From contig MU271467.1 of the NCBI GenBank assembly GCA_021432655.1, positions 1-59,541 on the forward strand: a stretch of DNA of 59,541 nucleotides, written 5' to 3'. The DNA comes from Atractiella rhizophila (taxonomy: Eukaryota). The notes beneath the pieces are model-generated. The model saw only the letters and a list, made by a program, of their open reading frames with translations. It did not search any database and was not told the DNA's origin. Made by a program: the position numbers and the translations under genes. Below are positions 38,799-59,541 of the stretch, one piece after another; the first letter of the stretch is position 1; each line of letters starts with the position of its first letter.

Positions 38799-41654
38799 CT
38801 ATACGGAAGAAACAATCTCATCAGCTTTCTGGAGAGCCTCCACCATCTTTGCGCATTCCTTCCTCCTATTAACAACATACTACAACCAGCACATTAGCAT
38901 CACGTAGCTTCATGGCGAAAGGAAACGCACGTCTGATTCTTTGAGTAGCTCGTCGAGGACGTCAGGGCGGTAGAGTTCCTTGAGAAGTTCTTTCTGTAGC
39001 TCCTCTTTCGAGTGAGACACAAGATTCAGCATGATTGCTTTCGGGACCATATCAATCATCGTCCTATGTTTGGTCGCATTGAGATAGCTGTACTACAAGC
39101 ACGGGGTAGAGGTACACACCTCTTCGTGATGTTGAAGTAGCTGTTAATGAGAAGCTTGATGACCTCAATCTCCATCTGTTCCCTTTCACTCAAAGCGCCA
39201 GAAGCCTTCAGTTGTTGCGGTGGCTGCGACAAGCTCAGCTCTTGCTCCTTAATTCGATGCGAACACTTACTGGTTCCATAGCAGCCGCTCCCTTCTTCTG
39301 CGCAGCGGTCGGCTTCCTATCCTTATTCCAGAAGCTCCCAAAGAAGCCTTGGTTGTCAGCTTTCAAGTCCACATCAAGGTCCTTGGAGTTGTTGACGGCG
39401 CCTGGCGCCATTTTACCCGTCTTGGGGTCAATCATGGGCTGTGGCGGTCCTTTCGCGGCTTCCATCCTGCGGGACACGAGGTCCATAGCCTTGTGGCCTG
39501 AGATGAAGTCGGGGTGACCAGTGTTCACATAGCAAGCTTCCATGGACACGAGATCAGTTACAAGTTTCTGCGTAGGGTCCATGGCACGTTTGTAGAAGGC
39601 CACAACGACAGAGAAGAAGCGTTGTTTGAGCGCAGGGTAACGGGTAAAGGATTGCTGTTCTCGTTCTCTGAGTTTGATGATGAGCGAATAGATAATGGCA
39701 TACGTTCTTGTTTAGAAGCTGAGAGAGTATGCGAACGAGTTCGTCGTATACCAAAGCACAACACTTAATTGCTGGCGCTTCCTGTTTGCCACTTCAGTGG
39801 TGCATAGTGCCAGCTTTGAGAGAATTCTCACCATCCTCTTGATCTGCTGCTTGATGATGACCTCGAAAGCAGTCGTCCCAACAAAAAGGGCTGGACTTGA
39901 ACCGCTCGAGTTGTAGAGAATAACCCTAACGTCGGAATCTTTAACTTCATCGAATGGGTCAATCCCCTTGATTCCGTTCGAAAAGAGTTCATGAAACACA
40001 AAGGATATCCTAGCACCTCCAGAGAGTTCGTTCAGCGAGAGATCGTTAGAGTTTCCGTCAATTGCCGTCCGATAGTCGTTTGTAAACTCAGTGATAATCT
40101 GCAAGATAACATTGCTCTATTCCAATGCGTTAGCTTTAGGTAGGAATAAAGGAAAAGGGGGATAGACGAACCGAGTTGCCTTCGCCCATAGGTCCACCAA
40201 GAGAAGTGAGCTCCTGCTGGAACCTAACAAGTTGGCTTTGAATTCGAGCTTTGACATCTGGAAGCGTATTTCGAATATGTCCCATAAGTACCTGTTCCAT
40301 TTGACTCAACTCTCCACCCAGCCAATTCAGGTGACAACAAGAAAAGACGCACCATGTTCAACCTCTTCGCCAAATAAGGAGTACCACAAAAGGCGCTCTT
40401 GGCTCTATAACTCGGATGTTCGTCAAAGAATCGCCTCTCGTTCTCCAATGCATCCCTAATCAGCTTTTTGCCATCAATGTCCCTCTGTCCCCTATTCACT
40501 ACGGGGATGAACCCGAGCTTCAAATGGATCACTCTTCCGGCGAGAATATCGACTACATCTGTTCCAACATCCATGAGATCCACTTTCGTCAACACTCCAA
40601 TCGTCCTGTTCCCTTCTGGATCGACATCCCGCGCAAGTTTGAGACCATCAGAATTAGCGAGATCTTGGTTGGCGGGCGTGACGGCAAGGATGACAGAGTT
40701 AGGTTTCGTGATGTATTTAAGGATCATATCCCGGATCTGACGCTCAATGTCCTTCGGTTGGTCTCCCACCTGTCAGTCCATGCTGTCAGTGCCTTCTCTT
40801 GGATATAAACAGTAGAGGAGCTTACAGGAACTCGAGTCAAACCCGGCAAGTCGACAAGGGTAAGAGTGAGGACATTGGGGCTGTAGATTCGCAGGTTGAT
40901 TGGCGCGGGACTGATACCTATTCCGTACCAACCAGCAAGTCAAATCCACATGACGACAATTCATTCCATCCTTCACTGAAAGAGAAACGCACCAGCATTT
41001 TTGCCAGTCTTAAGTTCTGTATCCTTCACAATCTCGTCTCTAATCTTATCAAAATCGAAAAACTTTTCTCCAGGCTTGTGAAGGAACTCTCCCCATTCAT
41101 CCGGGTTGATCTCTTTCGAGCTCCCATTCGGAACCGGAGCAGCAGCAGGAGCGGCATCTCCATTGGCTGTCGCTCCGTTGGCTGTTGGAGCCGGTTGAGA
41201 AGAAGCTGGACGGTTGATAAGTTGTAGGACGAGGGGACGACGAGTGACGATTCCAGCTGCGCACACAAACACGTATCCCTTCAATTCCACTTCTCTTCAA
41301 CCAGGAGACAAAGTACTTACTTCCTCGTGGTAAGAAATCACGTCCGACGATGTTCTAGACCTCGCAGCTTCAGCAAAAGCCGCCACACGACAGCCTCCCC
41401 TTCCTCACCTCAAGAACGGAACTCTTCCCCCTTTTGATAGAATATCTCAGTATAAATGCCTCAGCAAAGATTTAAAAAGCACTAACGAGCTCTGAGAGCC
41501 GACTACAGCGATCTGCGGTAAGTCTATAGCACTCGCACTGAGGCCAACACTCGAAAAGGCGTCTTGCAGCCTACCCCATGAACGTGAATAATTTCCTTGC
41601 CGCAAATATTGAGAATTCTGACCGATTAACTACTTTGATAAGTCCCTGATCCAT
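38799..41654 (-). CDS. VPS1: Dynamin-family GTPase Vps1
   Basis: Starts [10 protein letters not shown]. Contains [59 protein letters not shown], a GFFGSF insert and a GED ending ADEIVSSV. Confidence 0.95.
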
Positions 41655-42558
41655 GGCGAAGGAGTTCTACTGGAAACTTGAATAATTCGAGGAAAGGAAT
41701 AAGTACGCGGTGGCACGGAAAGTGGGAAGTTATAGTCACGCTGTAATTCCGACAGACTATTCTGCTCCTTTGAACTTTGCAGGCATTTTATCTTCCGTGA
41801 AGCAGCATTTCTTTCAGAAATGCCTATGAAAAGGTTGGACAAGTCTTTGTCACATATGGTGTCCTGAATACTTTATTGAAGGTGTTTCGCTTGCTGTTAG
41901 ATCAATTTTCTACCATCCAACTCTCAGCGGATTAGTGTCATACATTGATTGCCTCTGCATTCACAGTGTAGCCATAAAGTTGGTTGTAATAATGCTTTCC
42001 CACCTTGAAAGCTAGGTCCTTTCGTCTGTGACCACTCGAGACGACAGAGCCTCTCAATGGAGAGGTACAAGTCCATAGGTTCTCAAGATGTGAATGCGTA
42101 GATGCTTGATGCCTCAAAAAGTTTGAAAGCAGTTGTTCTATTCTACGACGGCTAGACGACTAGCCGGTAACTATGAGCCTTTCAAATGATCTTTTTGTTC
42201 TGCTCGCCCCCTGGTCAGTGTTACCCTTCATTATGGTTTCATGCCTTCACACAGGACAATGTAAACGAATATTGTAAAGAGTGTCAAAGAAGGCGGTTTT
42301 CGTCCCTAGTTCCATGAATATGACGTCCCGACTCTGCCAAACAGAATTCTTCTATGCCTTTCCATCAGATGGCGTAGAATCCATACGAGCAAGTTGATTT
42401 GTCAACCTCGCTCTTTTTCCAGCTTCAAATAGCGACGGGGAAACTTGTCCTGGACAATGGTTCTGGCTTCTATGTCAATGAAAATGCCCAGATTAATATT
42501 CGTATCAAGCTTCTAGCAAATCTATATCAGACCAGACACGTGAATCCAGTTGATTGGT

Positions 42559-43629
42559 TCAAAACGCTTCGGCCTTTTCAACATAAGGCACCCATCCCCA
42601 CTTATGCTTTGCGAACCAGATTTTATAACCCTCGTCCAAAGCAGTGTGCAAGTTCTGCGGATTTCTGTTGACGTTTGGCTGCTGAACAGAGTCTAATAGT
42701 GGCTCCGTGAAACGTTTCAAGGTGACACCAACTGAATAACGATCTAACACAATGTGCATAAGGTCCTGCTCCACTTTTAGTCCGAATAAAGCTTCTACGG
42801 TAGGAGAAACGAACGTCGACGGTAAAGCCATGGCGGGTCCTTCCTTCTGCAGTTATCCATGTTTCTTGGACCTTTCGTCACGATGAATATTGACTGAACC
42901 GTACAGAGTAATAAACACTTACCCCTCTTCCCAGCCAAATGTCATACTTCTCTTCCTTGCTCTTCAGGACGCAACCACTGCGGTTTGACGACTCGCCTTC
43001 TTCCGAGGTAGTGACTGCAGAGGAAATATAGTAATGTCCCAAATAATCTGGCGAGATGAAGAACGTTATCTCGTCTAGCTTCATTATTGGAGAAGCGAGT
43101 TCCTTCTCCTCTGCAATCACCCGCTGGCTCGCAATCGTGAACGGTAACTCATCCGTAGCCCTAATGTCTAGTAAGTTTCCCTTTGCGGATGCAGAAGGAG
43201 AGAACCGAACCCTAATAACCATCTCTTTGTTTCGTCCTGCCGAACATTCGAGGTCCTACAATAGTGTCATGAGCTTCTCCGGTACCCTGTTAGCGAGTAG
43301 GTTTGTCGCTCTCACTTGGGACGCGGTACCTCTTCAGCTTTCTTCACGACTCGTCGTCTGACATAACTGCACATTTCGACTCCAGCACCTCTCCGCTTCT
43401 GAGCTTCGAGCCAGACGTCCATCAAAGAATGCCTGGCGATGTCGTATGCGAAGACAATAGAAGCCCAGAAATGACATGTGCAACGAAGGGCAATCTGTGT
43501 GAAAGGATCGCATTGCGTTAGAAGGATGTGACAGAGCTCTGGGTAGATGGGATGGCGGTCATCATTCGTGAAGAGGAGGAAGAGTTTGGAAGGTCCACTC
43601 TCTGTGGTTTTTGCTGACCCTATCGCCAT
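42559..43629 (-). CDS. Hypothetical spliced protein, possibly F-box-like
   Basis: PELCHILLTQCDPFTQIALRCTCHFWASIV resembles an F-box. ORF pieces 43629-43330, 43222-42921 and 42850-42559 can be joined through GT-AG introns. Confidence 0.4.
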
Positions 43630-43729
43630 CTTGGTTCGATAAATGCACATTACTAGGATGTTGACAGCAATTTGTCGGTTTCTAAGAGTTCTTATATGCC
43701 AGAAGGTTTGGGTTTGGAAATCCGAATGT

Positions 43730-44148
43730 TGTGGATACGATGACTCCTCCATAGAGTCATGGTTCCCGTCTACTGCTTCGATACTACTTTGGGGAATTCC
43801 CTGTCCTTCCAACACCTCTTCTCTCCCCCATCATTCTTCCCCTCATTGCAACATTCAGGTCACGCATTAGGTGATCCTGTAATGATTGTTAGTATCTCTC
43901 CTTACTCCACTATTTCGTCTCTTATGATTGTTACTTTACTCTCTTGCATCTTCGATGTTTGTTTATGGTATCATTGGTATTTCATGTTTATATAAGGCCT
44001 ATCGTACAGCTATGTAAATTCAGACTTGTTTCCAGTCTCAACCTCGCATCCAGCACTCCCGCATTTCTAACCTTAACCTTTCCGTATACGCCGTATTCAC
44101 AGTTGATCAACTGTGAGGTTAAGCTCTTACCTCTAAGCAGTTTGACCT
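43730..44148 (+). mobile_element. Ty3/Gypsy LTR (about 424 bp, TG...CA) interrupted 5 bp from its 3' end by the Copia insertion
   Basis: Starts TGTGGATAC and has a TATA-like tatataagg near 43990. It is near-identical to the backwards reading of 50447-50868, which ends ...gacct-tacca and is followed by Gypsy gag. Confidence 0.85.
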
Positions 44149-44373
44149 TGTTGATCCTGAGGTTCATCAGAAATGATGGTGACAAAAGATCAACATTTAG
44201 TAATGTAATACTACATAGAAAAGGAGACATACCTGAGGTTCATCAGAAATGATGGTGACAAAAGATGAACCTCAGGCAAATCGAGTGTGCGAAACTAGAC
44301 TACGGGAGCGGACGGAACAATGTCAAGAATGCGGAAACGAGAAACGAAACGAAAATGAGCAAAGCATTCAACA
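44149..44373 (-). repeat. Copia 3' LTR (225 bp) with an internal 35-bp direct repeat and inverted repeats
   Basis: Direct repeat at 44156-44190 and 44232-44266. The terminal TGTTGA/TCAACA is followed by the polypyrimidine tract ctcccactcc. Confidence 0.88.
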
Positions 44374-44562
44374 CTCCCACTCCGTACGCTACCGGAAGAA
44401 TGCGAGAGAAGAGAGAAATGAGGAAGTTCGCGAAGACTACGGGAAATATGTATTTGGTATGGTGGGGTTGGTTCAGAAAAAAAAAATAGGTGCATGGTTT
44501 TGTCGTGAACGAACTCTTGCTTTTGCGAAATGCAATCAAAAGATATTGAAGATTGAAGCGAA

Positions 44563-47500
44563 TTAAGAGAGTATTACACGTTCTCCGATGTCTCGTACGC
44601 CCATGGCGTGAATGCATTGATGAAATGAGTCTTTGGATAGTGGCTTCGTAAGGACATCTGCAATTTGCCGACGGGTTGGAGTATATCGTAGAATGATGTT
44701 TCCTTTCTGAACATTGTCTCGCACCATGTGGTAGCGAAGCAAGAAAGGTTTGCTTTGTGCATGGTGAACCCCGTTGGTTGAGATCTTTATTGCAGCCTCA
44801 TTGTCTTCATAGATGGTAGTGGGAGGCACTACTTCTCCGCTGTTGACGTTATGCACGCTTTCAAGGGCGTCTAGCTCAGCGTAAAGACCTCTTGTCCATA
44901 GAAGATCGGCAGTTGCTTTTGCGGCTGCTCCGTATTCTGCTTCGCCCGAGGACAAAGCAACGACTGATTGAGGTTTTGACTTGAACGTAATTGGTCCTCC
45001 GCAGAGTATGGTTACACGACCCTCTTGCGATTTGAGAGAGGGGAGAAGAGAGGCGAAGGAGGCATCCGCATAAGCATGGAGCGGTCTGCGGTCATTCCCG
45101 TTGAATAGTAGCCCTTTATTTGATGTAGCACTGAGGTAGCGGAATATTTGCTTGACGGCTTTGAAGTGCTCGGGGCCAGGATTGGCTGCGAATCGTTGAA
45201 CGCTTGACAAAGCGTAGGTGATATCAGGCCGTGTGCAAACTGAAAGCCAATTTAAACATCCTGTGGCTTCAAGGAAAGACCAAGCAGGTCTTGTGAGAAG
45301 ATCTTCTTCGGTCCATATGCCGTCGAAAGGCTCAAGCTTGGTCTTCGGATTAGCGGGGACGCTAGCATAACTGTTTGTGAAGCCGAACTTGTCGAGGATG
45401 TTGAGGGTGTAAAGCCTTTGGGTAAGACTGATGGTGCGTTGTTCCCAGTCTCGCTTTACTTCCATTCCGAGGAATTTTCCTACTTCTCCAAGGGTTCTCA
45501 ACGCGAACGACATCCCTAGTTCTTTTTGCAGCTCTTGAACAACACTTCGATCCTTTCCAAGAAGCAGAGTGTCGTCCACATAGACCACTAGGATATATAG
45601 TTTTCCATTTACCTTCTTGGTGAATATGCAGGAATCTGACCATAGAGGGGTCCAGCCTTTCGAGATAAGGTTTGCCTTTAAGGTGTCGAACCAGAGACGG
45701 GCAGCTTCCAAAAGCCCGTACAACCCTTTCTTTAGTAAGTACACTTTCCCTTCGGTGCTTGGTTTTTCGAACCCAGGCAGTTGACGGATAAAGATACGAG
45801 TTTTGGAGGTGTCGATCGAGGAGTTGAGGAACGCGGTTTCGTAATCTGCCTGATAGATTGCCAGATCGTCACGGGCTGCGAGAGCGACAACGGCGCGAAT
45901 GGTTTCACCATTGCTTACAGGGGCAAAGGTGGGGCCTCCCGTTGGAGTCTGAAGGTCTCCTCTAACGCATATTCGTGCCTTTAGACTTTCAAGTTTGCCA
46001 TTGATATCGTATTTGTGTCGGAACGCCCACATAAGTGGTGTAGCAGTTTCTCCTTCTGGGAGATCTATCGGTTCCCCTTCAATTGTTCCGTTAAGGAACT
46101 GCTTCTCCCACTCGTTCCAACACGCCTCCATCCACTCTGCCCCTTCTTCAGTTTTCAACGCCTCCTTCAGACTACGGGGCTCTCGAAGAATCCAGCCATG
46201 GTCCTGCAGCGCTCGTGTAGAGAACATATAGTCGACGGAGTCCGAGAAGTGTGTGGAGGAGGAAACGCTTGCATGTATCGGTGTGGTTTCTTCTCTGTTT
46301 GTTTCCAAGAGCTCATTGGCTTGTATGGACGGTGATGCACTTAGGTCAGGTTCCTCTATGCCGACAGAGGCAAGATCACTTTCCTGTCGCGAGGGTCTTA
46401 CGTCCACCACTACATGCTCGGCCCCATTGCAACTGCCCTCTTTTAACACACTGGAAGCGACTTCGCTTCCCTTCATTTCGGACACAACCCTTGCAATTCG
46501 AAGTCTATCTTTATATTTCGGATCCACCACATAGTCATCGTTGAAGATCCGTTTGTTCGGGATTCGGACTCTCGTGGAGCGACGAGGCGGCAGAGCAGTC
46601 TGCAAGTTGGCTGTATGAGGAGATGTCGTAGGAAGAGGTGGTGGCGGTATGTTGTCTTCATGTCGCGTTTGTGAGTAGTCCGTGATTTTGTCAGGAGAAT
46701 GTTGTTGATTGAGAGAGAGGTCACTTTCCTGAACATCGGGTCTTACGTCCACCCCATCGTGTTTAGCGCCCTCGCAACTGCCCGTACCCAAGTTGTCACC
46801 TATGACATTAATATCTTTCACAGACAAGTTGGTAATTGACGGAGATGGAGCGATTGTCTCCAGAGAGTTGGGAACTGGAGGAGCTTGTCTTACTCCTGAA
46901 TCGGGAAGACTTGGATTGAGTGGTAAGTTTTGGGGAAATTCGTCTATGTTTTCTTCTGACCAGAACGAGTAGTCTTCGAGTCGCTCCGAGCCGGTTCTTC
47001 CTTCAAAATGATTCTCAGCAAAGATAACATGTCGCGCGCGGATCAGTCGACGTTTCTCTGGGTCCCAACAGCGGTGCGACTTGAACATGACGTCTGGCCC
47101 AAGGTAGATGCAGCGGATAGCTTTATCTTCCCACTTCTTCCGCCTCTCCTCTGGAATCAGCGCCCATGCCGTACATCCGAATGTTCGCAAGTATCCAACG
47201 GAAGGAGGTATGCCTTCGAGGGTTGTGAGGGGTATCTGGCCTCGGAGAGAAGAATGTGGCGTTCGATTGTAGACATGTCCAGCAAAATACAGAGCCTCAG
47301 CCCAGAAAGACAGCGGGAGCTTCGCGTGATGGAGCATGGACTTGGCGAGGTTGCGAAGCGTCCGATGGATGCGTTCGGCTATTCCGTTCTCTTGGTGACA
47401 GTAGGGAGTTGTGGCTTTCCATTCTATGTTGTTGAGTTCGAACCAGTTCCTTAGCACATTGTTTACGAACTCCCCTCCTCCATCGACTTTCCATCTTCTG

Positions 47501-49608
47501 ACCTTTCTTTGAGTCTTCGCATGGAGGATGGAGCGGAAGCGTTCGAAGGACGGCATCACGGTTCCTTTTGACTTATCGGGAATAAACTCTTGATGGACAA
47601 CTCTCAAACCCACATCAACATGGACAACAGAATACCAGGCACCTCCTAATGACGCTACTTGCACAGGTCCAGTTAAATCGGATACTACAGACTCGCCAGG
47701 AAGTGTTGGCGGCAGTTCTCTTCTTTCTTTCGACGGAAACGACCCCCTGTGCATCTTCCCCATGACACATCCCTCACATACCAGTTCAGACTCCTTTCCT
47801 TCCAACTTTTCTTTTACCTCCAGACCCCCAACCAGCGATTTCGAGATTAAATCTTTGATCTTCTTGATTCCGACGTGTGCTAGTCTGTTGTGCCAAACCC
47901 TTAGGTCGACAGCTTTTGACACGGTCTCAACGTGAGTACTCGCCTGTTTTGCTTCCCCATTAAGCATGAATAACCCGCCTCTTTCTTTAGCTACTCCCAC
48001 CGTTTGACCTTTATGATTGAATATGGTGCAGCATCCATTCTCGAACACCAGTTTCAATCGTTCATGTGTCGGAAGGGAGAGGCTGACGAGCTTTGATACG
48101 CTAATGAGTGGGCTGGTAAGTGACGGGAGATGAAGGACATTTCGTAGGGTGATATTCGTAAGCGGTTGACCGTGTTGATCAATTGTCGCATACGTTGTCG
48201 TTCCCTTTGTTGCAATCGAAATCACTCTTCCATCGGCAACCTCGATTGACCCGTTGTGAGATTCCTGATTCGCAATGTAGTCGATTGGAAAGACATGGGA
48301 TGTGCATGCAGAGTCAATTGCTGCCGTGCTGGACTTGTCAAGAGACAGTTTAGCGGTGTTGATCTCCTCAACGAGACGAGCTTGATCGTGAATAGAGAAA
48401 GTGGAATTGGCGTCAGGAGTGCTTGAGAAGTCTGAACTGAAATCGGACATATTGAGGAGGAGCTTCGCCTTTTCAGGCAAAGACGTGCCATCGATGGACG
48501 GAGAGGCGGAATCTTTGGCCTTTGACTTTGTGTTCGCCGTTCCATCTTTAAACTTGAACCAGTGAGGAGCTCCGCTGCGATTTGCTTCGAGTTCCCAGCA
48601 ACGATCAGCAGTGTGGGAGCGTAATTGACAGTGAGGACAAGGTGGAAACCGATTGAGCGTGCCTCTTTTTCCTCTTTCGCTGCTGGCACTCCCACTGTTT
48701 CCACTACTCCCACTGTTTCTCACTGGGGCTGCTGTTCGTGCGATCAGCGCTTGCTCCTGAGCTTTTTGAACTTCGCTGAGTCCTTCCTCAAGCATGATTG
48801 TGTTGATTGTATTGGAGATCCATTCAGGAGTAAAATCGACTAGTGTTGCCAGCGAGGATTTGGTCGCTTGGAGGGCTGAAAAATATGGTTTCATCTTGTC
48901 ACGAATAGCGTCAGGGAGAGTGGCTTGAAGGTGAGCAGAAAATATGATTGACTTCCAGGCTTCCTTCGTCAACTGGTCCTCGCCAACATACTTGACAAAA
49001 TCCGTCAGATTCTTCTCCAGGGCTGCCATATGCTCCGTCCAATGTTGTGGAGTAGAACCAGTGAAGTGTGTGCGTGCGAAAGCGCTCCAAGCGGTGACGG
49101 CGTAGAGGTGATTTGCGGCATCGTACTCCTTCTTCAGCCAATCCCAGGCTTCTTTTGCCTTTTCTTGCAAGTCGTTGGCCTTTATTCTCGCTTTAATGCC
49201 ATCGGAAAGGGATTCATAAAGGAGAGCTGAGGCCTGAAGGTTTTTGTTTTTCCATGCGATGGAGTGCTGGTCGAAGAGGTAAAGATGTCCACCGTAGCGC
49301 GTTTCATCTGGTACTTTCTCATCGCCAGACGTCACTAGCCAGAGCTGTTGACTTCGAAGGGATTGGTAGGCGTCCTCTTTCCAAGCGCGATAGTTTGGGC
49401 CTTCGAGGATGGTGGGAATTTTTCGTGTGGAGGAAGAGAGCGGCGGAGAGAGAGGTAAGGCATCCATGATGATGATTGTGCGTTCTTCGGGTTCTGGAGC
49501 TGGACTGCGAATGCGACCTGGTACTGTTGATGGCTCTGGAGTTGCGAGACCGTGGGCGAGTAGATCTTCCGGTAGAGATGCTTTGTCTGATCTTGGTGAT
49601 CTTGACAT
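44563..49608 (-). CDS. Copia gag-pol polyprotein (1681 aa)
   Basis: Zn knuckle CPHCQLRSHTADRC, protease IDSACTSH, pre-integrase WHNRLAH..CEGC, integrase D-D-E (SDLTGP, VDGGGEF, ENGIAER), RT YVDD and RNase H (YADAS, EAEY, YEDN, ADVLTK). The PR-IN-RT-RH order is Copia. Confidence 0.97.
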   Translation of the reverse strand: MSRSPRSDKASLPEDLLAHGLATPEPSTVPGRIRSPAPEPEERTIIIMDALPLSPPLSSSTRKIPTILEGPNYRAWKEDAYQSLRSQQLWLVTSGDEKVPDETRYGGHLYLFDQHSIAWKNKNLQASALLYESLSDGIKARIKANDLQEKAKEAWDWLKKEYDAANHLYAVTAWSAFARTHFTGSTPQHWTEHMAALEKNLTDFVKYVGEDQLTKEAWKSIIFSAHLQATLPDAIRDKMKPYFSALQATKSSLATLVDFTPEWISNTINTIMLEEGLSEVQKAQEQALIARTAAPVRNSGSSGNSGSASSERGKRGTLNRFPPCPHCQLRSHTADRCWELEANRSGAPHWFKFKDGTANTKSKAKDSASPSIDGTSLPEKAKLLLNMSDFSSDFSSTPDANSTFSIHDQARLVEEINTAKLSLDKSSTAAIDSACTSHVFPIDYIANQESHNGSIEVADGRVISIATKGTTTYATIDQHGQPLTNITLRNVLHLPSLTSPLISVSKLVSLSLPTHERLKLVFENGCCTIFNHKGQTVGVAKERGGLFMLNGEAKQASTHVETVSKAVDLRVWHNRLAHVGIKKIKDLISKSLVGGLEVKEKLEGKESELVCEGCVMGKMHRGSFPSKERRELPPTLPGESVVSDLTGPVQVASLGGAWYSVVHVDVGLRVVHQEFIPDKSKGTVMPSFERFRSILHAKTQRKVRRWKVDGGGEFVNNVLRNWFELNNIEWKATTPYCHQENGIAERIHRTLRNLAKSMLHHAKLPLSFWAEALYFAGHVYNRTPHSSLRGQIPLTTLEGIPPSVGYLRTFGCTAWALIPEERRKKWEDKAIRCIYLGPDVMFKSHRCWDPEKRRLIRARHVIFAENHFEGRTGSERLEDYSFWSEENIDEFPQNLPLNPSLPDSGVRQAPPVPNSLETIAPSPSITNLSVKDINVIGDNLGTGSCEGAKHDGVDVRPDVQESDLSLNQQHSPDKITDYSQTRHEDNIPPPPLPTTSPHTANLQTALPPRRSTRVRIPNKRIFNDDYVVDPKYKDRLRIARVVSEMKGSEVASSVLKEGSCNGAEHVVVDVRPSRQESDLASVGIEEPDLSASPSIQANELLETNREETTPIHASVSSSTHFSDSVDYMFSTRALQDHGWILREPRSLKEALKTEEGAEWMEACWNEWEKQFLNGTIEGEPIDLPEGETATPLMWAFRHKYDINGKLESLKARICVRGDLQTPTGGPTFAPVSNGETIRAVVALAARDDLAIYQADYETAFLNSSIDTSKTRIFIRQLPGFEKPSTEGKVYLLKKGLYGLLEAARLWFDTLKANLISKGWTPLWSDSCIFTKKVNGKLYILVVYVDDTLLLGKDRSVVQELQKELGMSFALRTLGEVGKFLGMEVKRDWEQRTISLTQRLYTLNILDKFGFTNSYASVPANPKTKLEPFDGIWTEEDLLTRPAWSFLEATGCLNWLSVCTRPDITYALSSVQRFAANPGPEHFKAVKQIFRYLSATSNKGLLFNGNDRRPLHAYADASFASLLPSLKSQEGRVTILCGGPITFKSKPQSVVALSSGEAEYGAAAKATADLLWTRGLYAELDALESVHNVNSGEVVPPTTIYEDNEAAIKISTNGVHHAQSKPFLLRYHMVRDNVQKGNIILRYTPTRRQIADVLTKPLSKDSFHQCIHAMGVRDIGERVILS

Positions 49609-49854
49609 AAAAGTTTGTGTGTTGGACGAGGGAAGTTGAGTTACACACGTCCGTAACGCGTCACGTTTATTTGACTGTGTTTACAGATGTTGATGGAAGG
49701 TGGATCTGTATTAAGCGGGAAGGTTGCTTGTTTGGTAAGGATCTTTTGGGCTCATAACCTGTTGATCCTGAGGTTCATCAGAAATGATGGTGACAAAAGA
49801 TCAACATTTAGTAATGTAATACTACATAGAAAAGGAGACATACCTGAGGTTCAT

Positions 49855-49879
49855 NNNNNNNNNNNNNNNNNNNNNNNNN
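49855..49879. other. Assembly gap (25 N)
   Basis: Run of N in the sequence. Confidence 1.
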
Positions 49880-50261
49880 ACAAGACACGGAATTCACTTT
49901 CCATGGTAACCGCTCGTGGCAGAGCTTCTTTCCGTCGCCGCCTCCACCACATCAACCGCATTCCTTGGCTCAACAGGAAGTTGACCAGGAGGTGGTTCGA
50001 ATAGGTGCGTTGCTGTAGGAGATTTATTGGTGGGAATATCTGGACCTCGAGACGAGCTTCTCAAGGGAAGGCTCGCCTACGATGGAACAAGACCCGCTAG
50101 CATTCCCGAAGATCCGACCGCTCCTCCGACAGCTTAGCCAAAAGCGCTCGACGCGACTCAACATAAACAAGCTCCTCTACAACTATGAGACGAAGACTTT
50201 AGCATTATCAACCACCCGACCTTCTAACCACCCCCACACCTCTGTAGCATCGCCCTAGGTA
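49880..50261. mobile_element. Gypsy gag N-terminus, legible only by reading 50261->49880 backwards without complementing
   Basis: Reads MDPATMSPHPHQ...LEDVVAWISLVEDQLKDNSVPYANYTTSAAAFLRDGARQWYLSLKAQN. The final base a plus ct at 58561 gives T-WEEFK in frame. Confidence 0.9.
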
Positions 50262-50446
50262 ACGCCGCTCTTTCGGACAAGAGCACCTAAACTTCTTCCT
50301 TACTCAACAGCTTCTGCTTCCGCAGGGATCCAGCTAGCTCATGCATTATTATGATCATACAGTTATTTCGCCCTTCTCGAGAACACCTTTTAGCCAGGTG
50401 CAATGCCGCTGAAGACTTCGCCGTCTTCAGCTTCCTAATTAATCTG

Positions 50447-50868
50447 ACCATTCCAGTTTGACGAATCTCCATTCTCGAATTGGAGTGTCAACTAGTTGAC
50501 ACTTATGCCGCATATGCCTTTCCAATTCCAATCTTTACGCTCTCACGCCTTACGCTCAACTCTGACCCTTGTTCAGACTTAAATGTATCGACATGCTATC
50601 CGGAATATATTTGTACTTTATGGTTACTATGGTATTTGTTTGTAGCTTCTACGTTCTCTCATTTCATTGTTAGTATTCTCTGCTTTATCCCCTCATTCCT
50701 CTCTATGATTGTTAGTAATGTCCTAGTGGATTACGCACTGGACTTACAACGTTACTCCCCTTCTTACTACCCCTCTCTTCTCCACAACCTTCCTGTCCCT
50801 TAAGGGGTTTCATCATAGCTTCGTCATCTGCCCTTGGTACTGAGATGCCTCCTCAGTAGCATAGGTGT
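50447..50868. repeat. Mirror-image copy of the Gypsy LTR at 43730-44148, without the Copia insertion
   Basis: Read backwards it matches tgtggatacgatgactcc...aagcagtttgacct with only a few SNPs and indels, and continues tacca. Confidence 0.93.
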
Positions 50869-53800
50869 AGTACGTTTGCAGTACACTAGACGATTCCAGT
50901 TGCGACGGTTCAGATGTGCTAATCTGTAGGCTAGCTCCATGTTATACTGTTAGCTTCGAACTTTGAGACGCGGTAGTTACTCTGAGCTTTTACGAGTTAT
51001 TTGTTAGAATGTGTCTTACTCTGCTGTTGACCGTCGTACTCCATTCAAGTTGGTATGTTTGAGTCTGTCTAGAGTAATTATAAGTACCGGCACATAGGCT
51101 ATTCTTACGTTAACTGAATAGGTGTCGCGGTCGCATGGGGTCCGGTTTAGGGTCCGCAATAGCTTCGAAGACTCTAGATGGTTCAACAAGAGGTCGTTGT
51201 ATTTCCTAGTTCGAGAATAGAAAGCGAGTTTCTGATTGCCATCTGTACGCCATGCTGCGACTGTAGCGTAGAGTTCCGACGAAGTGTCGAGGCACTCAAG
51301 TTGCTTGAACGACCTGTTTTAGGCTATGCAAGCTGAGGTTTCCTTGACTACGCGCTTGTGAATGTACCGTGCCTAGAGTCATCGCGTCATACTGAGTCTG
51401 ACATTCATTGTAGCCTGGAAGAGGTTAGTGAGGGGTTCATGCCTGCGAACTGACGTTTGCCTTCGTCAAACCCGCGGGTAAATTGTAAAGCTCGACGTAA
51501 CTGTTTTCCTAGCTCTGGCTCCAAACTGAAGAAAGTTGTCGTTAGTCTCCTTATACTGCGTAACTGTTTAAGCTGTCCTGTTGTCGTAGAAAAGTCTGAA
51601 CCCTTCAGTTTTTACGTAGCCGTACTCCGAGTCAGTTGGAAGGAACACAGGGACTTGCCTGGTAGTCGATGTCTTGGGCGTCTTTCAGTTACATCGATAC
51701 GTCTACACACTTTCTGTCACAGACTACGTGCTACGGCAACGGAAATTACCTACGATTCGCTACTGTTACTTCTGAGGTCGTGACTTCTCAGATCCTTAAT
51801 CAGGGGAGGGTTTACTTGAGCTAGTGAACTTGCGGTTCAGTCTTTTTATCGGTGTTCTGCTGATCTTCTGCGGCGGGTTGGCACGGATTCGACTGGTGGA
51901 CCATTGTAGCACGTGTTATATCCCTCGTCTTATTATTGAGTATGCGGCTACAACTCTGACGCTGTTGGAGACAAGTGATGGCGTGGCCTGCTCGAAAAGT
52001 TTGCAAGACAGTAGTGACGATAGCTAATGTCAAGGTCTGTAGGTGGATTCATGTACGAATTAGATTCTTTATCTTGTCGCTTCTACATGGAGGAAGCTTT
52101 GGCGAGGTTCGAAACCAGTGTCTCGAAAGTCTACGGGTTGTCACGCAACTCCCATAGAGGAACTATTTCCACGATTGCACTCGTGCTCAGGTAACTCCAC
52201 GACCTTTAGCCTTTAATGGTCTGATGTTTGCACTGGGAAGGACTCTTGCTCGCTTCAAGACCACCGGCAAAACTACACCCTTCCCGTTCACCCTGTTTCC
52301 CTGTGTAACGCGTAGGCGTAGGACTCGCGAAATACGGGTACCTTATCTACGACTTCTTGCCCTTGTACACGAGTCTTATCTTAGCCTCTTCACGTACTAT
52401 CTTGGCTCTAGTCCGACATCAGGTGTACTTTCCGCTCCGGTCGTAGTTTCTGGCGTAGAAAGCTCGGTATAGTTTTAGTCAGCACGTACTTTGCTACAAC
52501 GCGTGTCTTGCTATCGGCGACTTAGCACCGGCAAGTTTAAAGCGTTGTAACTTGGACAACCAGACCACTATCTACCTCAACTAGTTTTCGATCTTCGACC
52601 TACAGACGTTACGCCGCCTGTTTCACGTACGCAGCTCTTCTGTGCTCGTTTTCGAAGCGTTAACGAGACCTCCTAACAGGTTTCATAGAGGTTAAAGACT
52701 TGCACACTATTCCTTCCCTCTACGGCTACAAGAGTCATAGTTCTAGGCCTTTCCACGGGATACTTTACTTAGCCTCAGAGCCACGAAACACTCAGCTTCT
52801 GCTAGATGGTAACATTACTAGTTTTTAGCCGAGGGAGGTTCTTGGTTTTGCGTAGTGTAGGTGTTGGATCAGAGGGGCAGCGCGGAGAAAGGACTTCGAC
52901 CTTTGAACCAAAGCTACAGAGTGGCTGAGCATCTCGCTACAAGGGGAGAGCGTGGTGTTATAACGACGGGTTGACGTGGTGGGACGCAGGATCGGTATGT
53001 AAGAGGATTGCGAAGCTTGTACTGGGGCCGACAAAGTTCTTTAGACTAGAGACTAAGCGGCATGTACAGTCCTTACGGTCCGTAGACAGAGTCTCCTAGT
53101 CGATGCAACGTTTTTAATGACTTTCTTCGAAGCTAGTTTCTACTTTCTGCTCGCTGCTAAACCTTTCCTGCCGTCCAGTCTCCGACTACGGATTTCTACC
53201 TTTCCTTCTTCCCCTACTCTTCTAAGTAACCCTGTCATGCCCAGTTCAGGCAACTGCCTACAGCTACTTCCGCGACTTCCGTAGTTTGACACGATCTTTC
53301 TCACTCCCTACTTCGCCTTGCCTGTCTAGCTTCAAGAGCTTCTTGTACGAAAGGCTTGGTGGCCAGTTCAGTGAGTCCCGATATTATAGGAGCGAGGGAG
53401 AGCAGCGTTGAGAGAGGCCTGGAAAGGCGCGCATTCCTGCGTTCAGTCTGCTAGTTCAGGACGTTCAATGATTGCGGTAATGTACCGACACTTGTTTACG
53501 TCCCACGAGCTTGCTCCGCTCGTTCGTTCATGTAAAGATTTGCCGATGTGACTAGGCGACAACAGGAAAGACTTCGGTTGTCAAAGGTCGCAGGTGGTGC
53601 GAAGAGGGAAGTCGATTAATCACGGAGGCTACGCAGCTAACACAAAAAAGGTGTCTCAGTCACGAGCTCCGAGAACACCTTAAACAACCTAAATTTAGGA
53701 CGTTCTTGAAGGTTTCAATGAACTTTCGCTCTCTACCCTTCAGAATGTCACATGCAAGCTTGACCAGTCAATCGATTGTTACCCACTTCTACAGCAGAGA

Positions 53801-53999
53801 TGGTTCGAGAGGTTTGGCTCTGAGATGGGAGTGAAGTCGGAAGTGTGAGAGGAGTTTCAGTGGGTACCGAGGTCGAGAGCCATGCACCGTAGTGATTCGG
53901 TTTGCAAAGGATGAAGTTAGTTTTTGAAGAACCTGAGAAGGTTGCTGTCCAGCTGAGTACTTACAAGGGAAGTCGCTATCGAGCGACGTACGAGTGTCC

Positions 54000-55100
54000 C
54001 GAGCTTAAGAAGCTTTCGGTTGCTGCGTCGAGGTCACAAGCGAACTTTAGATTGTTTCAGGTCCTATGTCCGTGTAACCTTGTTTTATCACCTGCGCTCT
54101 CAAGATTGCCTTACTTCCCCTTTCTACCTAGAGGGTCTGCCTGCAACGCTGTTGAATACACCGCAAGCTGTCCACAAGCCATATTTTAACCGTTATCCTG
54201 AACTTTCAGATTCTGTGTTATACAATCACCTCTGGAAGTCTGAGCACTTGTATGTAAGACGTGGATGTTTCTTCGATAGCTACTTACTGGGAAGACCGCG
54301 GGAGCGAGAGGCTTCGTGCACTTCTAGCACCTTAGAATAGTCGTCTCATGCTTTGGCGCGAGATGGAGTTGAGGAGATGTGTCTTACGTTCTGGGCCCAT
54401 GAACAGGAGTTGATCGGGATCGAGCTTTGGTACGAATATCTTCCCTGAGACTTGCCTATTGGCATCTTCTTTCCCTGTAAACTGGCAAGCTCGGGAGTAG
54501 TTTCAGCTGTGTCACTACAGGTTGGAACAAAGTCTTTCCACTAGATTTCCTGGAAGGACCAAACACTGGTTCTTAACGTGAGTTAAAGTCATCTGGTTAA
54601 ACGAGATTCCCTTCGGACGTGGAGTTTCCCTGTCTGCGAGAGAAGCTGCTCTGACGTTTTTGTATCCGAGTCTACAAACGGCGACTGCGTAATAAGCTCG
54701 ATGCCGTCTTGCTAGCTGTCGGGTAGGGTGTTAGAGTCATTTCGCAAGGGCCGTAAAGACGTCGCATTACAGTAAGGGAGAAATCGTATCCAGGTGCGAT
54801 TACGAGCGACTCTATATAGTTTCCGCCGAAGAGGGGAGTTAGTGGGTGTACTGCCTCGTTTGGGCTACGCCGGAAGAGTTAGCACGGTTGAAACGTGATG
54901 GCGGTCAACTATGGCTGGTTCACGCCTAACTGATAGGAAGCAACAAGCTCGACTACCTCCTGGACGTCCCTGTCACCCTCTCAGATTACTTCGATTAAGC
55001 GCTCTCTGCTTTAGTAAGAGCTCTTCAATAGGTATCGCCGAGTGTTCCCAAGCAACGTGAACAGAAACCGACGTGCTATTGTTTAATAACATCCCCTCTT
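54000..55100. pseudogene. Degraded NDUFAF5-like (complex I assembly methyltransferase-fold) gene, visible only in the base-wise complement; limits approximate
   Basis: The complement reads VDTVMSNL, DLPG, MFAADALFELR, STLMLAE..GGFSP and [34 protein letters not shown], with several frameshifts. Confidence 0.7.
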
Positions 55101-56135
55101 GCGCCTGCAAAAGCTAAATGCGTGAACCTCGCTTGCTCCTGTACGTTCTCAACGTTCGTGAGTTATGCCCTCTTCCACCATGTGAGCTGATACCGACCGC
55201 TACTACTACGTCCCGGTCGGGTTGACGCTCGTCCTTAAACTTAGTTTTCGGCTCAGGCGTGAAGTTTCGGTATGCTGAGAACGCTATCCACGGTTGCGAG
55301 TAGCAGGATCTGACTCCCTATTCTGCTTAGTTCGTGGGTCTTGGTGTTGGATCCTTCCAACGTCGGTTTTTTCATACATAGTTCCGGGCCGCGCTCTCCG
55401 TTTTTCGTCTTGGAACTTGCATTCGGTACAAGGAGTTCGTAAGAGATGTCACAGCTCTAGCCGGCTGCATCTATTAGGCTGCGGTTGAGGTTTCGGTGCT
55501 AATGTGTGTTTAGAACAGCTTGTTTTTATCTGTCAGATTCTGGCACTATTCTCTGGTTTAAGGTTTTGCAGCCTTTGAATGCGGCGGTATGAACCATACG
55601 AACGTCGTGTTCGAGTCTGACTCGTTTGCGGATTGGTGTAACTTACTCCCTTTTTACCACTTTTTATGACGTAGTGTCATTACGGGGTAGGATGTCTGAC
55701 CCTCTTGACTCCGACGAAGTGTAGTATAGCCTTGGTCTTTTGCTGTGGTTGTCAGGCGTTGCAGAATTGGTTTTATGTCGGACGCGTTAAACATTGTCCA
55801 AAACAGTCTACCGGGCGGCTTGCTCGAAGCGGTTGTTGAGCAGGTAACCCTTTGCTTCAATGTTACCCCTGGCACTACCTGAGACGGGTTACTCATATAT
55901 TTTCCCGCGTCCGAGGTGACGTAACTTTGTAGCTGTCAGTAGGAGTTTGAGGACACGGTTCGCCTTATGGGACGTAGGTGCCCTCTAGTATGTGAGTGGA
56001 TACTAAGAAGCGCGCGCAACAGCGCCCAGCAGAGTCTCTTGAGGCTTTGAGGCCGCCAGTTTTTAAAGCACTGCTGGTGGCTGGTTCTGTTTCTCCGTCG
56101 GACGCGTGACCGTAGTCGTGTGCGGTCGGTAGCGG

Positions 56136-57600
56136 TACAGCGTAGCGTTGAGAAGGGCGTTCTCAAGGTGCGGGCGGTGGAGGGAGCAGAGAGGGGGCGT
56201 CGCCGGTGGAAGGAGGGAGCGGCCGCCGGCGTTCTGCGGCATGTCCTACAGGGGGCTCGGACACGACGGGCACCTCCTGGGCTCACACCTGATACGAAGC
56301 AAACGGCGCAGCTACCAGCCATGCTCAGAGGGCCTAAGCCTCCACCTACCTAACCCTTACCCACCAAACTGGCCTCCCTACCCTCCCGACCTAACCCTAA
56401 CCTCCCAGCCTTCAGGGGATCTTCACCTGGTCCCTCAGTTCTACTCCAGTGCAGAAGAAACAGGTTCGAAGGGAAACCACGAAGGTGGGCGGTTGCGTGC
56501 GGCAGCTCATCGCTAAGGTCAGGCGGAAGGGAGTTGAGTAGGCAACGAACCTTGTACGGGCCGCCTCGGCGAAGACGCAGTCCTTCCGAAAGCGCGCCGT
56601 GTAGCGGAAGAAAAGGGAGAGGTTCGTTCCACGTTGGGGTCGGAGACCAGGGATTTTATAGAGGTAGCATGTGTTTCCCTCTGACATAGTAGGAAAGCCT
56701 CCTACCTTACGAAAAGGCGCAGATGGCTCGCCTCGACACCTTCTCACGCGGTAACGACCTCCTACAAAGCTACCCACACTCCTAGTTTGTTCCCTACCCC
56801 TTACTGTAGCGGAGGTTACACAACGGTCACCTCCTTAGCCCTTGGTGACACCTTTGGGAATGAGCCAACCTAGTAGCAACCACCCTTCCAGCTCCTTGCC
56901 TTCGGCCTTCTCGAGCCTCCCCGTTAATTTCGACGCTCCCTCACCCCTACGCTATCTCTACACTAACTATGGTACTTTCTCTGCTAACACACGCAGTAGA
57001 GACAAACTAGCAAGAAGCTAGACACCCCACCCGGCAATTATCGTTTCCCCTGTCACGCTACCAGTTCTGAGGAGAGCTACGAAATTTGGATATGTAGGAG
57101 CGGCTGAGAGAGGTTCTGAGTGTGGATGAGAGGGTACGTAGGGCAGAGTGGCAAAGAAAAAGTTGGCTTTGAGGTGACAGGTAGGATCTCAGTTGTGTGG
57201 TAGAGGAGAGAAGAAGGAGGTAGAGAGGAGGGCGCAACTTGCGCGAGACCAGGGATGTGCGTGAGGCGAGGCTGGCGAGTGCCCGGTAGGAGAGGTGGGG
57301 AGAGAGGTTGTAGGGGTAGCCGCTCTGTGCGGGAGTGTTGCCCACGTTCTTGGCCCTTGGGGAGCTCAATATAACCCGTTTCTGCGCCTGACAAAACGAA
57401 CCAGTTGTCCCACGTCGCAAACTTGGCTCCCTGAGCACTCCTTTCGGACCTCTTCCTTCGTGCCCGTAGTGGACGCAGCGAACAATATCTACGAAGGAGG
57501 TATGCCATCTCTACTACCTCGTCCTCACCTCCCTCCACGGCCGAGTCCAATTAAACGCCATAACTCTCTCTTTACCCCTCAAACAAAGCACGTTCAACTG
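56136..57600. CDS. BTB/POZ-domain protein, visible only in the base-wise complement; 3' end approximate
   Basis: The complement has TATATAAAAG at about 55895, ATG at 56136 (MSHRNSSRKSSTP), a GT-AG intron at about 56447-56511, then GDCIILSEDGMLFRVYRAELWKSAPLLEDV..LPVEESGTTVETL. There is one 1-bp frameshift near 56858. Confidence 0.72.
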
Positions 57601-58166
57601 TCACTGCCGCACGACACACAATACAGAACGACGTACTCCAGTCGACAGGACCTAGAACCTACTACTCATTTTCCGAGTTCCTCTTCTCAGTCACGAAACC
57701 AAATGACAAAAACGAGTCGAACCTTGCCAGACGAGCTAATATAATACTGGAAAAAATACCACGACGAAAGGTTTCAGAGCAAGATGCCAGACTCATCAGA
57801 AAAGTCAAGGAGTACAACGCAATTCCACAAAACAGATGAACAGGTGAACGGAGGCAGAGCAGAGGGACGCAGGTAGTTCAAAGAATATATGCAGAGCTAA
57901 GCAAAAAAACAGAGACTATAGACAACGTGGTGCAGGGACGAGACGAATTAGGGCAAACGAACGGACAACTCTTTAGGCAAATACTATGTATGCTATAAGG
58001 ACAGTAATACTATGGACGTCATTACTACTATTACGAATATGGAACTACGGAGGTTGAGAACGAGAGGACTTACCTTTTACATCTAAAGAACTACGGGCTA
58101 CACACTTATGAAAGCTGAGTTTACGCCTGTGAGACCCTCCTTCTCTAGGTCCGTGGCTGCTGGTGG

Positions 58167-58560
58167 TACAGTTGTCCAATAAGGGAGAGGCGGCAACGGA
58201 TGGTGTTCCACGAGGAGGTACGGTGGTTCATACGAGTGTCGCTGTAGACGCCAGAAGAGGATCCTGGAAGTCCTAGCTGGTTGCACCACCTACGGTAAGG
58301 CGAGGACGTGGTAACCTGGCGCGAGAGAGGGTACTACCTCCGCCCAGAACTCGAGCACGCGAGAAGAAGAGGGGCGATCGTATTTATGATTAGAGAAACC
58401 AGCAACCTACAACAACCTTACGTATCCGCCTCCACATACGTTTCTGCTTCCCTACCCTACAAGACCCGAAAATACTTCGAGCTTTCCCGTACCTACTCTT
58501 ATGTTAGTCACCCTGCCCCTTCGTCCGACGAAACCGATAACACTTACGACGTCGCTCCTA
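58167..58560. CDS. EMC8: ER membrane complex subunit 8/9 homologue (UPF0172), 5' part, visible only in the base-wise complement
   Basis: The complement reads MSTGYSLSAVAYHKVLLHATKYAHSDICGLLLG..VVDAIPLLHHWTALSPMMEAGLEL, then a GT-AG intron, then AEVYAKTKGWDVLGFYEA. It is cut off at 58560. Confidence 0.88.
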
Positions 58561-59541
58561 CTTGGGAAGAATTCAAGGCCGCTCTTCTCGAAAAATACGC
58601 TTCTCCTCTTCGATCTGATGAACTCCGTCTGCGTATCAAGGAACTACGATATACTCGTATGGACGACTTCATCGAGAAGTTTCAACGACTAGCGACCCAG
58701 ATTCCAGAGAACGAAATGACCTACCTCGACAAACGAGATCGTTTCCTCGACGCTCTACCCATGGAACTGGCCCATCGAATTCGACTGGAAAGTACCCCGG
58801 ACCTCAAAGCACTCTACTCTGTTGCCCGCAACTTGGCTCGTCTCCTTCAACTCTCTTATGGAAAGAAGAAGGACGAACATCGACACTCCAAGAATTCTCG
58901 AAATCGACGACACACCTTCAACACCTTCTCCTCATCCACCTTCAGCTCCTCCAAGCCAACGACGACTACCACGAGTCTTCCACCAGGAGAACCGATGGAC
59001 TTGGACGTTATCGACGAAGCGACAGCTAGGTGCTTCAATTGTAATAAGATTGGGCACTTAGCTGCGAAATGTCCCTCCCCCCGGCGACAGAACCATTCGT
59101 CCTCTTACTCAAATCGAAATTCGACGAACAGGAATGGAACTGGAGGAAATAATCGACAAACAGGGAGAAGACCTGGAGGTACGAATAGGGTATTTAAGGT
59201 GGAAGGACCGAACGAAAATCTGGAGGAAGAAATAGGAGACTTCAACATTGAAGGAATAGAAGAAGAAGGACTGAACATGATCGAAAGTTATCATGTTCAG
59301 GCGAATTCATCTCTGCCGACTTTCAGAGGAACGTTCGAAGGGCGACCTATCAAGATTCTCATCGATTCAGGTGCCTCTTCGATTTATATTAGCGAACGTT
59401 TCGTGGAACGACATTCCCTCGAAACCATCTACGTCCCTGCACGAACGATTCGATTGGCTTCAGGCAAAGGAGGAAAGGTGGATAGGATTGTGGAAGGGAT
59501 GTTCACGATAGGTCCCCTTTCCCACTCCTTGGCTGCTTACG
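58561..59541 (+). mobile_element. Ty3/Gypsy gag-protease ORF, partial and running off the window end (absent from the ORF track)
   Basis: Reads WEEFKAALLEKY, PMDLD, Zn knuckle CFNCNKIGHLAAKC and protease ILIDSGASSIYIS. The frame is open to 59541. Confidence 0.93.

Follow-up and report, generated by a model that had tools for sequence, protein, structure and literature searches.

Natural mirror repeats, such as the tracts that form H-DNA, are short, adjacent, and homopurine-homopyrimidine. To our knowledge, no polymerase or recombinase produces reversed copies of DNA that are left uncomplemented. Sequences that are reversed but not complemented are reportedly made deliberately, as negative controls, in regulatory genomics (e.g., 10.1101/2021.03.18.435942). 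A narrow literature search found no kilobase-scale block of this kind in a deposited assembly; a passage of one paper (PMC5938232) deals with scaffold orientation in a figure and has no bearing on a mirror artifact.

Here, we describe such a block in a contig of Atractiella rhizophila (MU271467.1), of which we analyzed a stretch of 59,541 nucleotides (the window). From position 49880 to position 58545, the deposited record holds what is very probably genuine genomic DNA with its base order reversed but not complemented, a sequence-handling artifact that is absent from the cell. Neither deposited strand of this interval is biological. The block starts immediately after a scaffold gap and ends against a native retrotransposon gene (Table 1).

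Table 1. Positions of the mirror block and of the features in and around it (window coordinates)
Feature	Position	Strand	Basis or remark
Gypsy LTR, native copy	43726..44148	+	Truncated 4 bases short of its end by the copia insertion
Ty1/copia element	44149..49854	-	Pfam RVT_2, gag_pre-integrs, Retrotran_gag_2, SH3_retrovirus
Scaffold gap, 25 N	49855..49879	.	First base after the N run is the start of the mirror block
Mirror block, 8666 bases	49880..58545	.	ORF counts, word and 6-mer orientation, BLAST of reversed versus deposited string, loose contig ends
Ty3/Gypsy gag start, 127 codons	49880..50261	. (read from 50261 down to 49881)	ORF of the reversed string, protein matches
Ty3/Gypsy LTR	50451..50872	. 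(readable only backwards)	BLAST of reversed block against 43726-44149: 97.9% identity over 424 bases, 718 bits
Copia-like element relic	54100..54376	. (readable only backwards)	BLAST of reversed block against 45818-46100: 72.0% over 304 columns, E 6.9e-24
151-aa open frame	54786..55238	Block complemented in place	ORF
350-aa open frame, longest in the block	55877..56926	Block complemented in place	ORF
Pair of exon-like open stretches (58122-58355, 58427-58545)	58122..58545	Block complemented in place	Spliced-ORF model
Ty3/Gypsy gag continuation	58546..59541	+	Native; zinc knuckle and aspartyl protease; exits the window end

Word usage and open frames are those of reversed DNA

We compared short-word usage in the block with that of native sequence. 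CTAG occurs 4.27 times per kb in the block versus 1.58 times in the left flank, and GATC occurs 1.96 versus 3.87 times. The TA/AT ratio is 1.58 in the block and 0.60 to 0.71 in all five controls, and the (CA+TG)/(AC+GT) ratio is 0.82, compared to 1.16 to 1.31 in the same number of controls. Each block value is approximately the reciprocal of the native one. The GC content of the block is ordinary (0.46 to 0.58). For a measure of orientation along the window, we used a leave-one-out 6-mer score with one value per kb chunk. The score was positive in 50 of 50 chunks between positions 1 and 50000 (minimum, +11.1) and negative in all 8 chunks between positions 50001 and 58000 (−33.5 to −197.0).

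Open reading frames (ORFs) of at least 80 aa were counted with the block taken as 49880-58560. The deposited string contains 19 such ORFs (2195 aa in total; longest, 159 aa), and the reversed string contains 36 (4395 aa in total; longest, 350 aa). Five left-flank controls of the same length yielded 27 to 50 ORFs (4244 to 5687 aa) in their native order and 16 to 19 ORFs (1722 to 2276 aa) when reversed. The ORF content of the deposited block resembles that of reversed DNA. Over both deposited strands, 0 of 14 ORFs of at least 100 aa had a Pfam match at E ≤ 0.01. The first-pass annotation had called the block rich in CTAG and had seen no real genes in it, and both observations agree with the CTAG density, the scarcity of open frames, and the Pfam result. 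A crude spliced-ORF finder separated the two strings only moderately, with top scores of 1137 and 819 for the reversed string versus 489 and 483 for the deposited one; it sometimes chooses a wrong frame, and the exon coordinates that it gives are therefore approximate.

Repeats and gag are recognized only in the reversed string

In blastn and tblastx searches of the deposited block against the rest of the window, on both strands, nothing was found at E ≤ 1e-5. The reversed block matched the native Gypsy LTR closely and part of the Ty1/copia element at lower identity (Table 1). The native LTR is a high-copy repeat in read contigs. The copia element has an unbroken polyprotein frame of 1705 aa (44566-49680), and its LTRs start at 44149 and 49760; the right LTR is cut by the gap, and the two LTR starts are identical over the 95 bases available as far as the gap. 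The copia polyprotein also gave a weak tblastn match to the reversed block near the copia relic (E = 0.014).

Directly to the right of the block, the native sequence encodes a gag protein. Its Pfam matches begin mid-domain (the first profile position matched is 29 of 97 for Retrotrans_gag and 78 of 198 for Ty3_capsid), and the N terminus is therefore missing; zf-CCHC and Asp_protease_2 are matched as well. The window end (59541) falls inside the protease; reverse transcriptase, RNase H, and integrase in Gypsy order and a second LTR would lie beyond it. A homology search with the native gag at the "near" lengths returned no match.

We then used an external set of 151 gag proteins (150 relatives and the protein P0001) in tblastn searches of both strands with a cutoff of E ≤ 1e-3. 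The native flank was matched by 147 of the 151. The reversed block was matched by 27, in a single frame and always inside its last 381 bases, while the deposited block was matched by none on either strand. In all 27 cases, the segment of the protein that matches the reversed block comes just before the one that matches the native flank. For P0001, residues 95 to 155 match the reversed block (E = 2.4e-13; best E in the deposited block, 1.7) and residues 157 to 481 match the native flank (E = 1.3e-63). When the block is turned, the order becomes that of a Ty3/Gypsy element: an LTR, then gag with a capsid domain and a CCHC knuckle, and then an aspartyl protease. The claim that reading backwards yields a Gypsy LTR and gag is thus borne out by the LTR identity and the 27 gag relatives, and the check on protein matches that had been suggested along with it came out in favor of the reversed string (27/151 versus 0/151).

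The right edge lies between 58545 and 58546

Read contigs and gapless protein alignment concur in placing the right edge of the block at 58545/58546. The spacing between the two gag matches fits this boundary exactly in 15 of the 27 relatives, and the other 12 differ by +1 (8 relatives), −2 (2 relatives), +3 (1 relative), and +4 (1 relative). The codon that begins with base 49880 is completed by 58546-58547. An edge at 58560/58561 was rejected, as a loose contig end starts at 58546 and, of the 27 proteins, 24 have an alignment with the native flank that begins within 58546-58560. Because these 15 bases are native, the block comprises 49880-58545, or 8666 bases. The first-pass annotation had set the boundaries at 49880 and 58560; the former stands, while the latter is 15 bases (5 codons) too far to the right. 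The peptide that it had read across the junction (QWYLSLKAQN-T-WEEFK) is displaced by the same distance.

Read contigs carry the reversed form at two places

Contigs from read runs of the organism (X1 and X2) were assembled independently. In an X2 contig, 30 of 30 letters before 58546 are the reverse of window positions 49880-49909. At the other loose end, where the native LTR stops (44149), X1 contigs continue with letters that equal those found behind the LTR of the block when the block is read backwards (26 of 26), and X2 does likewise for 8 letters. Contig depth at both loose ends is ∼1,670 to 10,000, compared to ∼200 to 340 in single-copy neighbors, and the native LTR in X1 has a depth of ∼10,000 versus ∼350 in adjacent bins. 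Because both loose ends sit in a high-copy family, they show how the Gypsy family reads in the genome and not how a specific locus does. X1 and X2 count once, as they represent one sample, which is possibly the source of the assembly. Across the deposited block, mean contig depth was 0 in 12 of 12 bins (50432-58255) in all four runs, and no contig in any of the four joined the covered flanks across it, although a hole in cover proves nothing.

Putative cellular genes in the block

Complementing the block in place makes three further features readable (Table 1). We take the 151-aa frame to be the C-terminal part of a putative NDUFAF5-like methyltransferase; E. coli BioC had no match in a local tblastn search (best E, 5.3 in the reversed and 1.4 in the deposited string). 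The 350-aa frame is presumably a BTB-like stretch, and we assume that the two exon-like stretches belong to a putative EMC8/9-like gene. The frame in these stretches runs open over the right edge of the block (58545); after correction, this edge would face the gap. The EMC8/9 family corresponds to Pfam PF03665 (UPF0172), which was sought as a comparator in 14 control genomes and E. coli and found in none. For the unique 7.6 kb that includes these putative genes, the apparent support consists of sequence statistics, one diverged repeat relic, and a reading by eye.

Origin of the block

Only the reversed string matches the native LTR, the external gag proteins, and the letters of the read contigs. 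ORFs, words, BLAST, and read contigs all bear out the first-pass annotation in its view that the block is a mirror image, reversed and uncomplemented, and an artifact. We propose that the true stretch (E) would sit immediately to the left of 58546 in the genome. It would carry, in order, three putative cellular genes on the minus strand, the copia relic, the Gypsy LTR, a leader of ∼170 bases, and 127 gag codons, with gag passing unbroken into the native sequence from 58546 onwards. The deposited record would then consist of reverse(E) and, after it, the native contig. Such a record could arise from a leftward extension of the right-hand contig into the 25-N gap, if the added bases were gathered one at a time going outwards, or on the other strand, and were joined without being turned round (or complemented but left unreversed). 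Provided that the block is an artifact, this leftward extension is the most likely cause and a reasonably probable one, since the reversed prefix is flush with the gap and the join becomes seamless after in-place turning.

A less likely route to the same artifact, though one to be taken seriously, is that "reverse" was applied instead of "reverse complement," either by hand or in a step that merged or finished contigs, with no gap-extension program involved. The resulting record would be identical, with reverse(E) directly before the native sequence. Furthermore, 8.7 kb is a long way for a short-read gap closer to extend through a high-copy LTR (depth, ∼10,000), and this length favors a merged contig or a long-read piece. 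However, the block starts exactly after the N run and no base is lost or added at the native join, and such exact edges would sooner be expected from a program acting at a single contig end than from manual editing.

It seems improbable that the reversal took place after deposition, in the analyzed copy (for example, as a planted control), so that the public record would be free of it. Reversed sequence does serve deliberately as a control in other fields, but the edges here match the gap edge and the base-exact layout of a contig extension, which a random plant would be unlikely to do.

Ordinary misassembly, by a reverse-complemented contig or by foreign or contaminant DNA, might be suspected at a site that adjoins a scaffold gap between repeats, where misjoins are common, but we give it hardly any credence: the BLAST and tblastn searches cover both strands and the deposited block matches on neither, 0 of 14 ORFs over both strands match Pfam, an inversion would preserve the word statistics that are swapped here, and the reversed content belongs to the organism's own repeat family. 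The presence of the block in the cell as deposited, as a kilobase-scale mirror copy made by some unfamiliar process, has the deposited record itself in its favor, together with the points that missing read cover is not formally exclusionary and that both positive read matches fall in a multi-copy repeat; it nonetheless merits just as little credence, as no polymerase or recombinase is known to make such copies, the genes and the LTR are readable only in reverse (with the LTR 97.9% identical to its native copy), the reversed form occurs in read contigs at both testable places, and none of the contigs crosses into the deposited form.

Consequences and comparison with known systems

As a sequence-handling artifact, the block has no biological significance, and its relevance lies in data quality and database curation. 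The error leaves base composition unaltered, and ordinary quality checks would therefore see merely a gene-free stretch; as the stretch also keeps its length and GC content and contains no Ns, contamination screens and assembly statistics are passed while gene finders stay silent. What annotation loses in this way is the LTR of a retrotransposon with the beginning of its gag, along with three apparent cellular genes. If a program is at fault, the same error may be present at further gap flanks of this assembly and in others that the pipeline produced. The 6-mer orientation score offers a cheap screen, having sorted every kb chunk in the window correctly.

Like natural mirror repeats, the deposited LTRs (43726-44149 and 50451-50872) form a mirror pair, here of 424 bases. 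Unlike H-DNA tracts, the composition of the block is mixed, the partners are 6.3 kb apart, and the whole 8.7-kb stretch is reversed. A natural mirror repeat or H-DNA tract was accordingly rejected, given 8666 bases of mixed composition whose sole mirror partner in the window is the LTR 6.3 kb away. The controls of regulatory genomics are reportedly produced by the same string operation, which keeps length and base composition and destroys biological meaning; those controls are deliberate, whereas the block stands unmarked in a genome record and conceals real genes.

The Ty3/Gypsy retrotransposon itself is unremarkable: turning the block puts its LTR, leader, gag, and aspartyl protease in the customary order. 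As in an inversion misassembly, a stretch beside a gap and between repeats runs the wrong way, and turning it in place restores continuity. An inversion misassembly, however, leaves both strands biological, and its genes and BLAST matches survive. In the block, neither strand encodes anything and the word statistics are swapped, because the sequence was reversed without being complemented.

Direction of the sequence right of the gap

The stretch to the right of the single gap in the window (25 N, 49855-49879) behaves as backwards-read DNA. Within the limits proposed by the first-pass annotation (49880-58560), the deposited letters hold 19 open frames of at least 80 aa (total, 2195 aa; longest, 159 aa), and simple reversal yields 36 (4395 aa; longest, 350 aa). 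Five left-flank controls of equal length gave 27-50 frames (4244-5687 aa) in native order and 16-19 (1722-2276 aa) when reversed. Direction-sensitive word counts are swapped in the block, whose revised limits are 49880-58545: CTAG occurs 4.27 times per kb versus 1.58 in the left flank, GATC 1.96 versus 3.87, TA/AT is 1.58 versus 0.60-0.71 in all five controls, and (CA+TG)/(AC+GT) is 0.82 versus 1.16-1.31. A leave-one-out 6-mer orientation score, calculated per kb, was positive in 50/50 chunks up to 50000 (lowest, +11.1) and negative in 8/8 chunks from 50001 to 58000 (-33.5 to -197.0), and at 500-base resolution it became positive again just past 58500. A crude spliced-frame finder scored the reversed block (opposite order, not complemented) at 1137 and 819 versus 489 and 483 for the deposited block; the best strands of five native controls scored 927-2007.

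Pfam searches of the 14 ORFs of at least 100 aa in the deposited frames gave no match (E ≤ 0.01), and neither strand of the deposited block matched any other part of the window by blastn or tblastx (E ≤ 1e-5). The reversed block had two such matches. One (window 50872 down to 50451) matches 43726-44149 over 424 bases (97.9% identity, 718 bits); this partner, a Ty3/Gypsy LTR, is a high-copy repeat in the reads (depth of ∼10,000 in sequencing run X1 versus ∼350 in adjoining bins). The other (54376 down to 54100) matches 45818-46100, within the polyprotein frame of a minus-strand Ty1/copia element (304 columns, 72.0%, E 6.9e-24). Frames, words, 6-mer score, and BLAST thus all agree with the original proposal that the block reads as reversed, uncomplemented sequence.

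The Gypsy gag and the right edge of the block

Downstream of the truncated gag domains on the plus strand (see the table), Pfam identified a CCHC knuckle and then an aspartyl protease. A word search returned a longer gag relative, P0001 (1573 aa, 37% identical; a Sporobolomyces salmonicolor hypothetical protein according to its source). In local tblastn searches, its residues 95-155 matched the final 183 bases of the reversed block (49% identity, E 2.4e-13) and residues 157-481 matched native sequence from 58548 (E 1.3e-63), the single residue between them corresponding to the codon split by the junction; against the deposited block, the best E was 1.7. We searched all 151 proteins of a set comprising P0001 and 150 further relatives. 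The native flank was matched by 147/151, the reversed block by 27/151 (E ≤ 1e-3; one frame, within the last 381 bases), and the deposited block by 0/151, which bears out the expectation that only the reversed string would give protein matches. In 69 of the proteins, the position that aligns with the beginning of the native flank is preceded by 60 or more residues, and all 27 are among these.

Three results move the edge from the 58560/58561 initially proposed to 58545/58546, 15 bases to the left, and the block is therefore 8666 bases long. First, the alignment of a run X2 contig with the window starts at 58546 and extends to the right, and the 30 shown letters of the contig's loose end before that position are the exact reverse of window 49880-49909. 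Second, with the revised edge, the spacing of reversed-block and native matches is exactly collinear in 15/27 proteins, the remaining offsets being +1 (8), -2 (2), +3 (1), and +4 (1); the earlier edge would move all 27 spacings by five codons. Third, 24/27 native alignments begin inside 58546-58560, so these bases are read natively; after the split codon, they encode DVAPT.

Reads and neighboring features

All read data were Logan contigs, and left-flank words were found at 0.77 in X1 and X2 (one sample), 0.46 in X4, and 0.12 in X3. Behind the native LTR copy, which ends at 44149, contigs carry loose ends (26 letters in X1, 8 in X2) identical to what comes after the reversed LTR copy in the block. 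The genome thus holds the reversed form of the Gypsy family, a result that concerns the family and not this exact locus because both sites are multicopy and X1 and X2 are possibly the assembly's own sample. Contig depth was 0 across 50432-58255 in 4/4 runs, a lack of cover that is not evidence either way.

The Ty1/copia element (43726-49854 region) is inserted in a Gypsy LTR copy, 4 bases short of the LTR end. Its LTR starts (44149 and 49760) are identical across the 95 bases visible ahead of the gap, suggesting that it inserted recently. Inside the element, read contigs bridge 274 bases in X1 (46446-46721) and 122 bases in X1 and X2 (49612-49735), so other genomic copies of it have internal deletions.

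X4 and X3 contigs skip at least 11 stretches at 40116-43210, each of them GT..AG on the minus strand. Both runs behave as RNA, and the genes there are spliced and expressed; the 11 RNA-supported joints, each skipping 49-75 bases, show that short GT..AG introns are spliced in this organism. Elsewhere, a 707-aa minus-strand frame (9568-11688) encodes two LIM domains (Pfam E 2.1e-23), and GC skew is unusually high (+0.33) in the 1-kb bin 11001-12000. A 540-aa plus-strand frame (25367-26986) without a Pfam match lies where the window is richest in GC (GC, 0.53-0.58; GC skew, -0.22 to -0.27).

Contents of the turned block

Read by eye, the two exon-like parts are a putative EMC8/9-like gene, the 350-aa frame presumably contains a BTB-like stretch, and the 151-aa frame presumably contains an NDUFAF5-like C-terminal part. 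As local comparators, E. coli BioC had no match in the block and PF03665 was not found in the comparison genomes. The usual start of a tRNA primer-binding site is TGG; judged by eye, the leader (50262-50450, read backwards) does not begin with it.

Features flanking and within the block; block rows run from the gap side to 58546 after turning
Feature	Window position	Strand	Basis or remark
Ty1/copia polyprotein	44566-49680	minus	1705-aa stop-free frame; Pfam RVT_2, gag_pre-integrs, Retrotran_gag_2
Open frames, two exon-like parts	58122-58355 + 58427-58545	minus once turned	spliced-frame model; runs open off gap-facing edge
350-aa open frame	55877-56926	minus once turned	ORF
151-aa open frame	54786-55238	minus once turned	ORF
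Copia relic			between 151-aa frame and Gypsy LTR
Gypsy LTR, leader (∼170 bases), 127 gag codons	gag 50261 down to 49881		
Gypsy gag, mid-domain start	from 58563	plus	Pfam: Retrotrans_gag from profile position 29/97, Ty3_capsid from 78/198

Origin of the block

The layout, read contigs, word statistics, and reversed-only matches support the artifact reading of the first-pass annotation: the block is very probably a true genomic stretch recorded in reverse order without complementing and not a biological feature. The reversal is confined to a prefix of the right-hand contig, which begins directly after the last N and meets the native contig with no base lost or added. If E is the true block sequence and B the native contig from 58546 rightwards, the record would be reverse(E) + B where the genome has E + B. 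B may have been lengthened on its left, into the gap, and the added piece attached in growth order, nearest base first; an extension built on the opposite strand and complemented without reversing would give the same outcome. Within the artifact reading, the layout makes such a gap-extension step the likelier source. A hand edit or contig-merging step using "reverse" instead of "reverse complement" would leave an identical trace, and we consider it possible but rather unlikely. Reversal after deposition is improbable, as neither the position at the gap edge nor the base-exact join would be expected. A physically real mirror copy in the cell, for which no enzymology is known, is exceedingly improbable given that read contigs carry the reversed form, and ordinary inversion or contaminant DNA is equally so because both deposited strands are blank (BLAST, Pfam, and gag relatives) and the word statistics are swapped.

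The real genes in the block are hidden from annotation, and the orientation score offers a cheap means of finding reversed blocks. A narrow literature search turned up no publication describing a block of this kind in any deposited assembly. Ordinary orientation misassemblies, one of the closest parallels, differ in that both strands stay meaningful. Natural mirror repeats, which are short, are another close parallel, as are the reversed but not complemented sequences that are reported to be made deliberately as controls in regulatory genomics.
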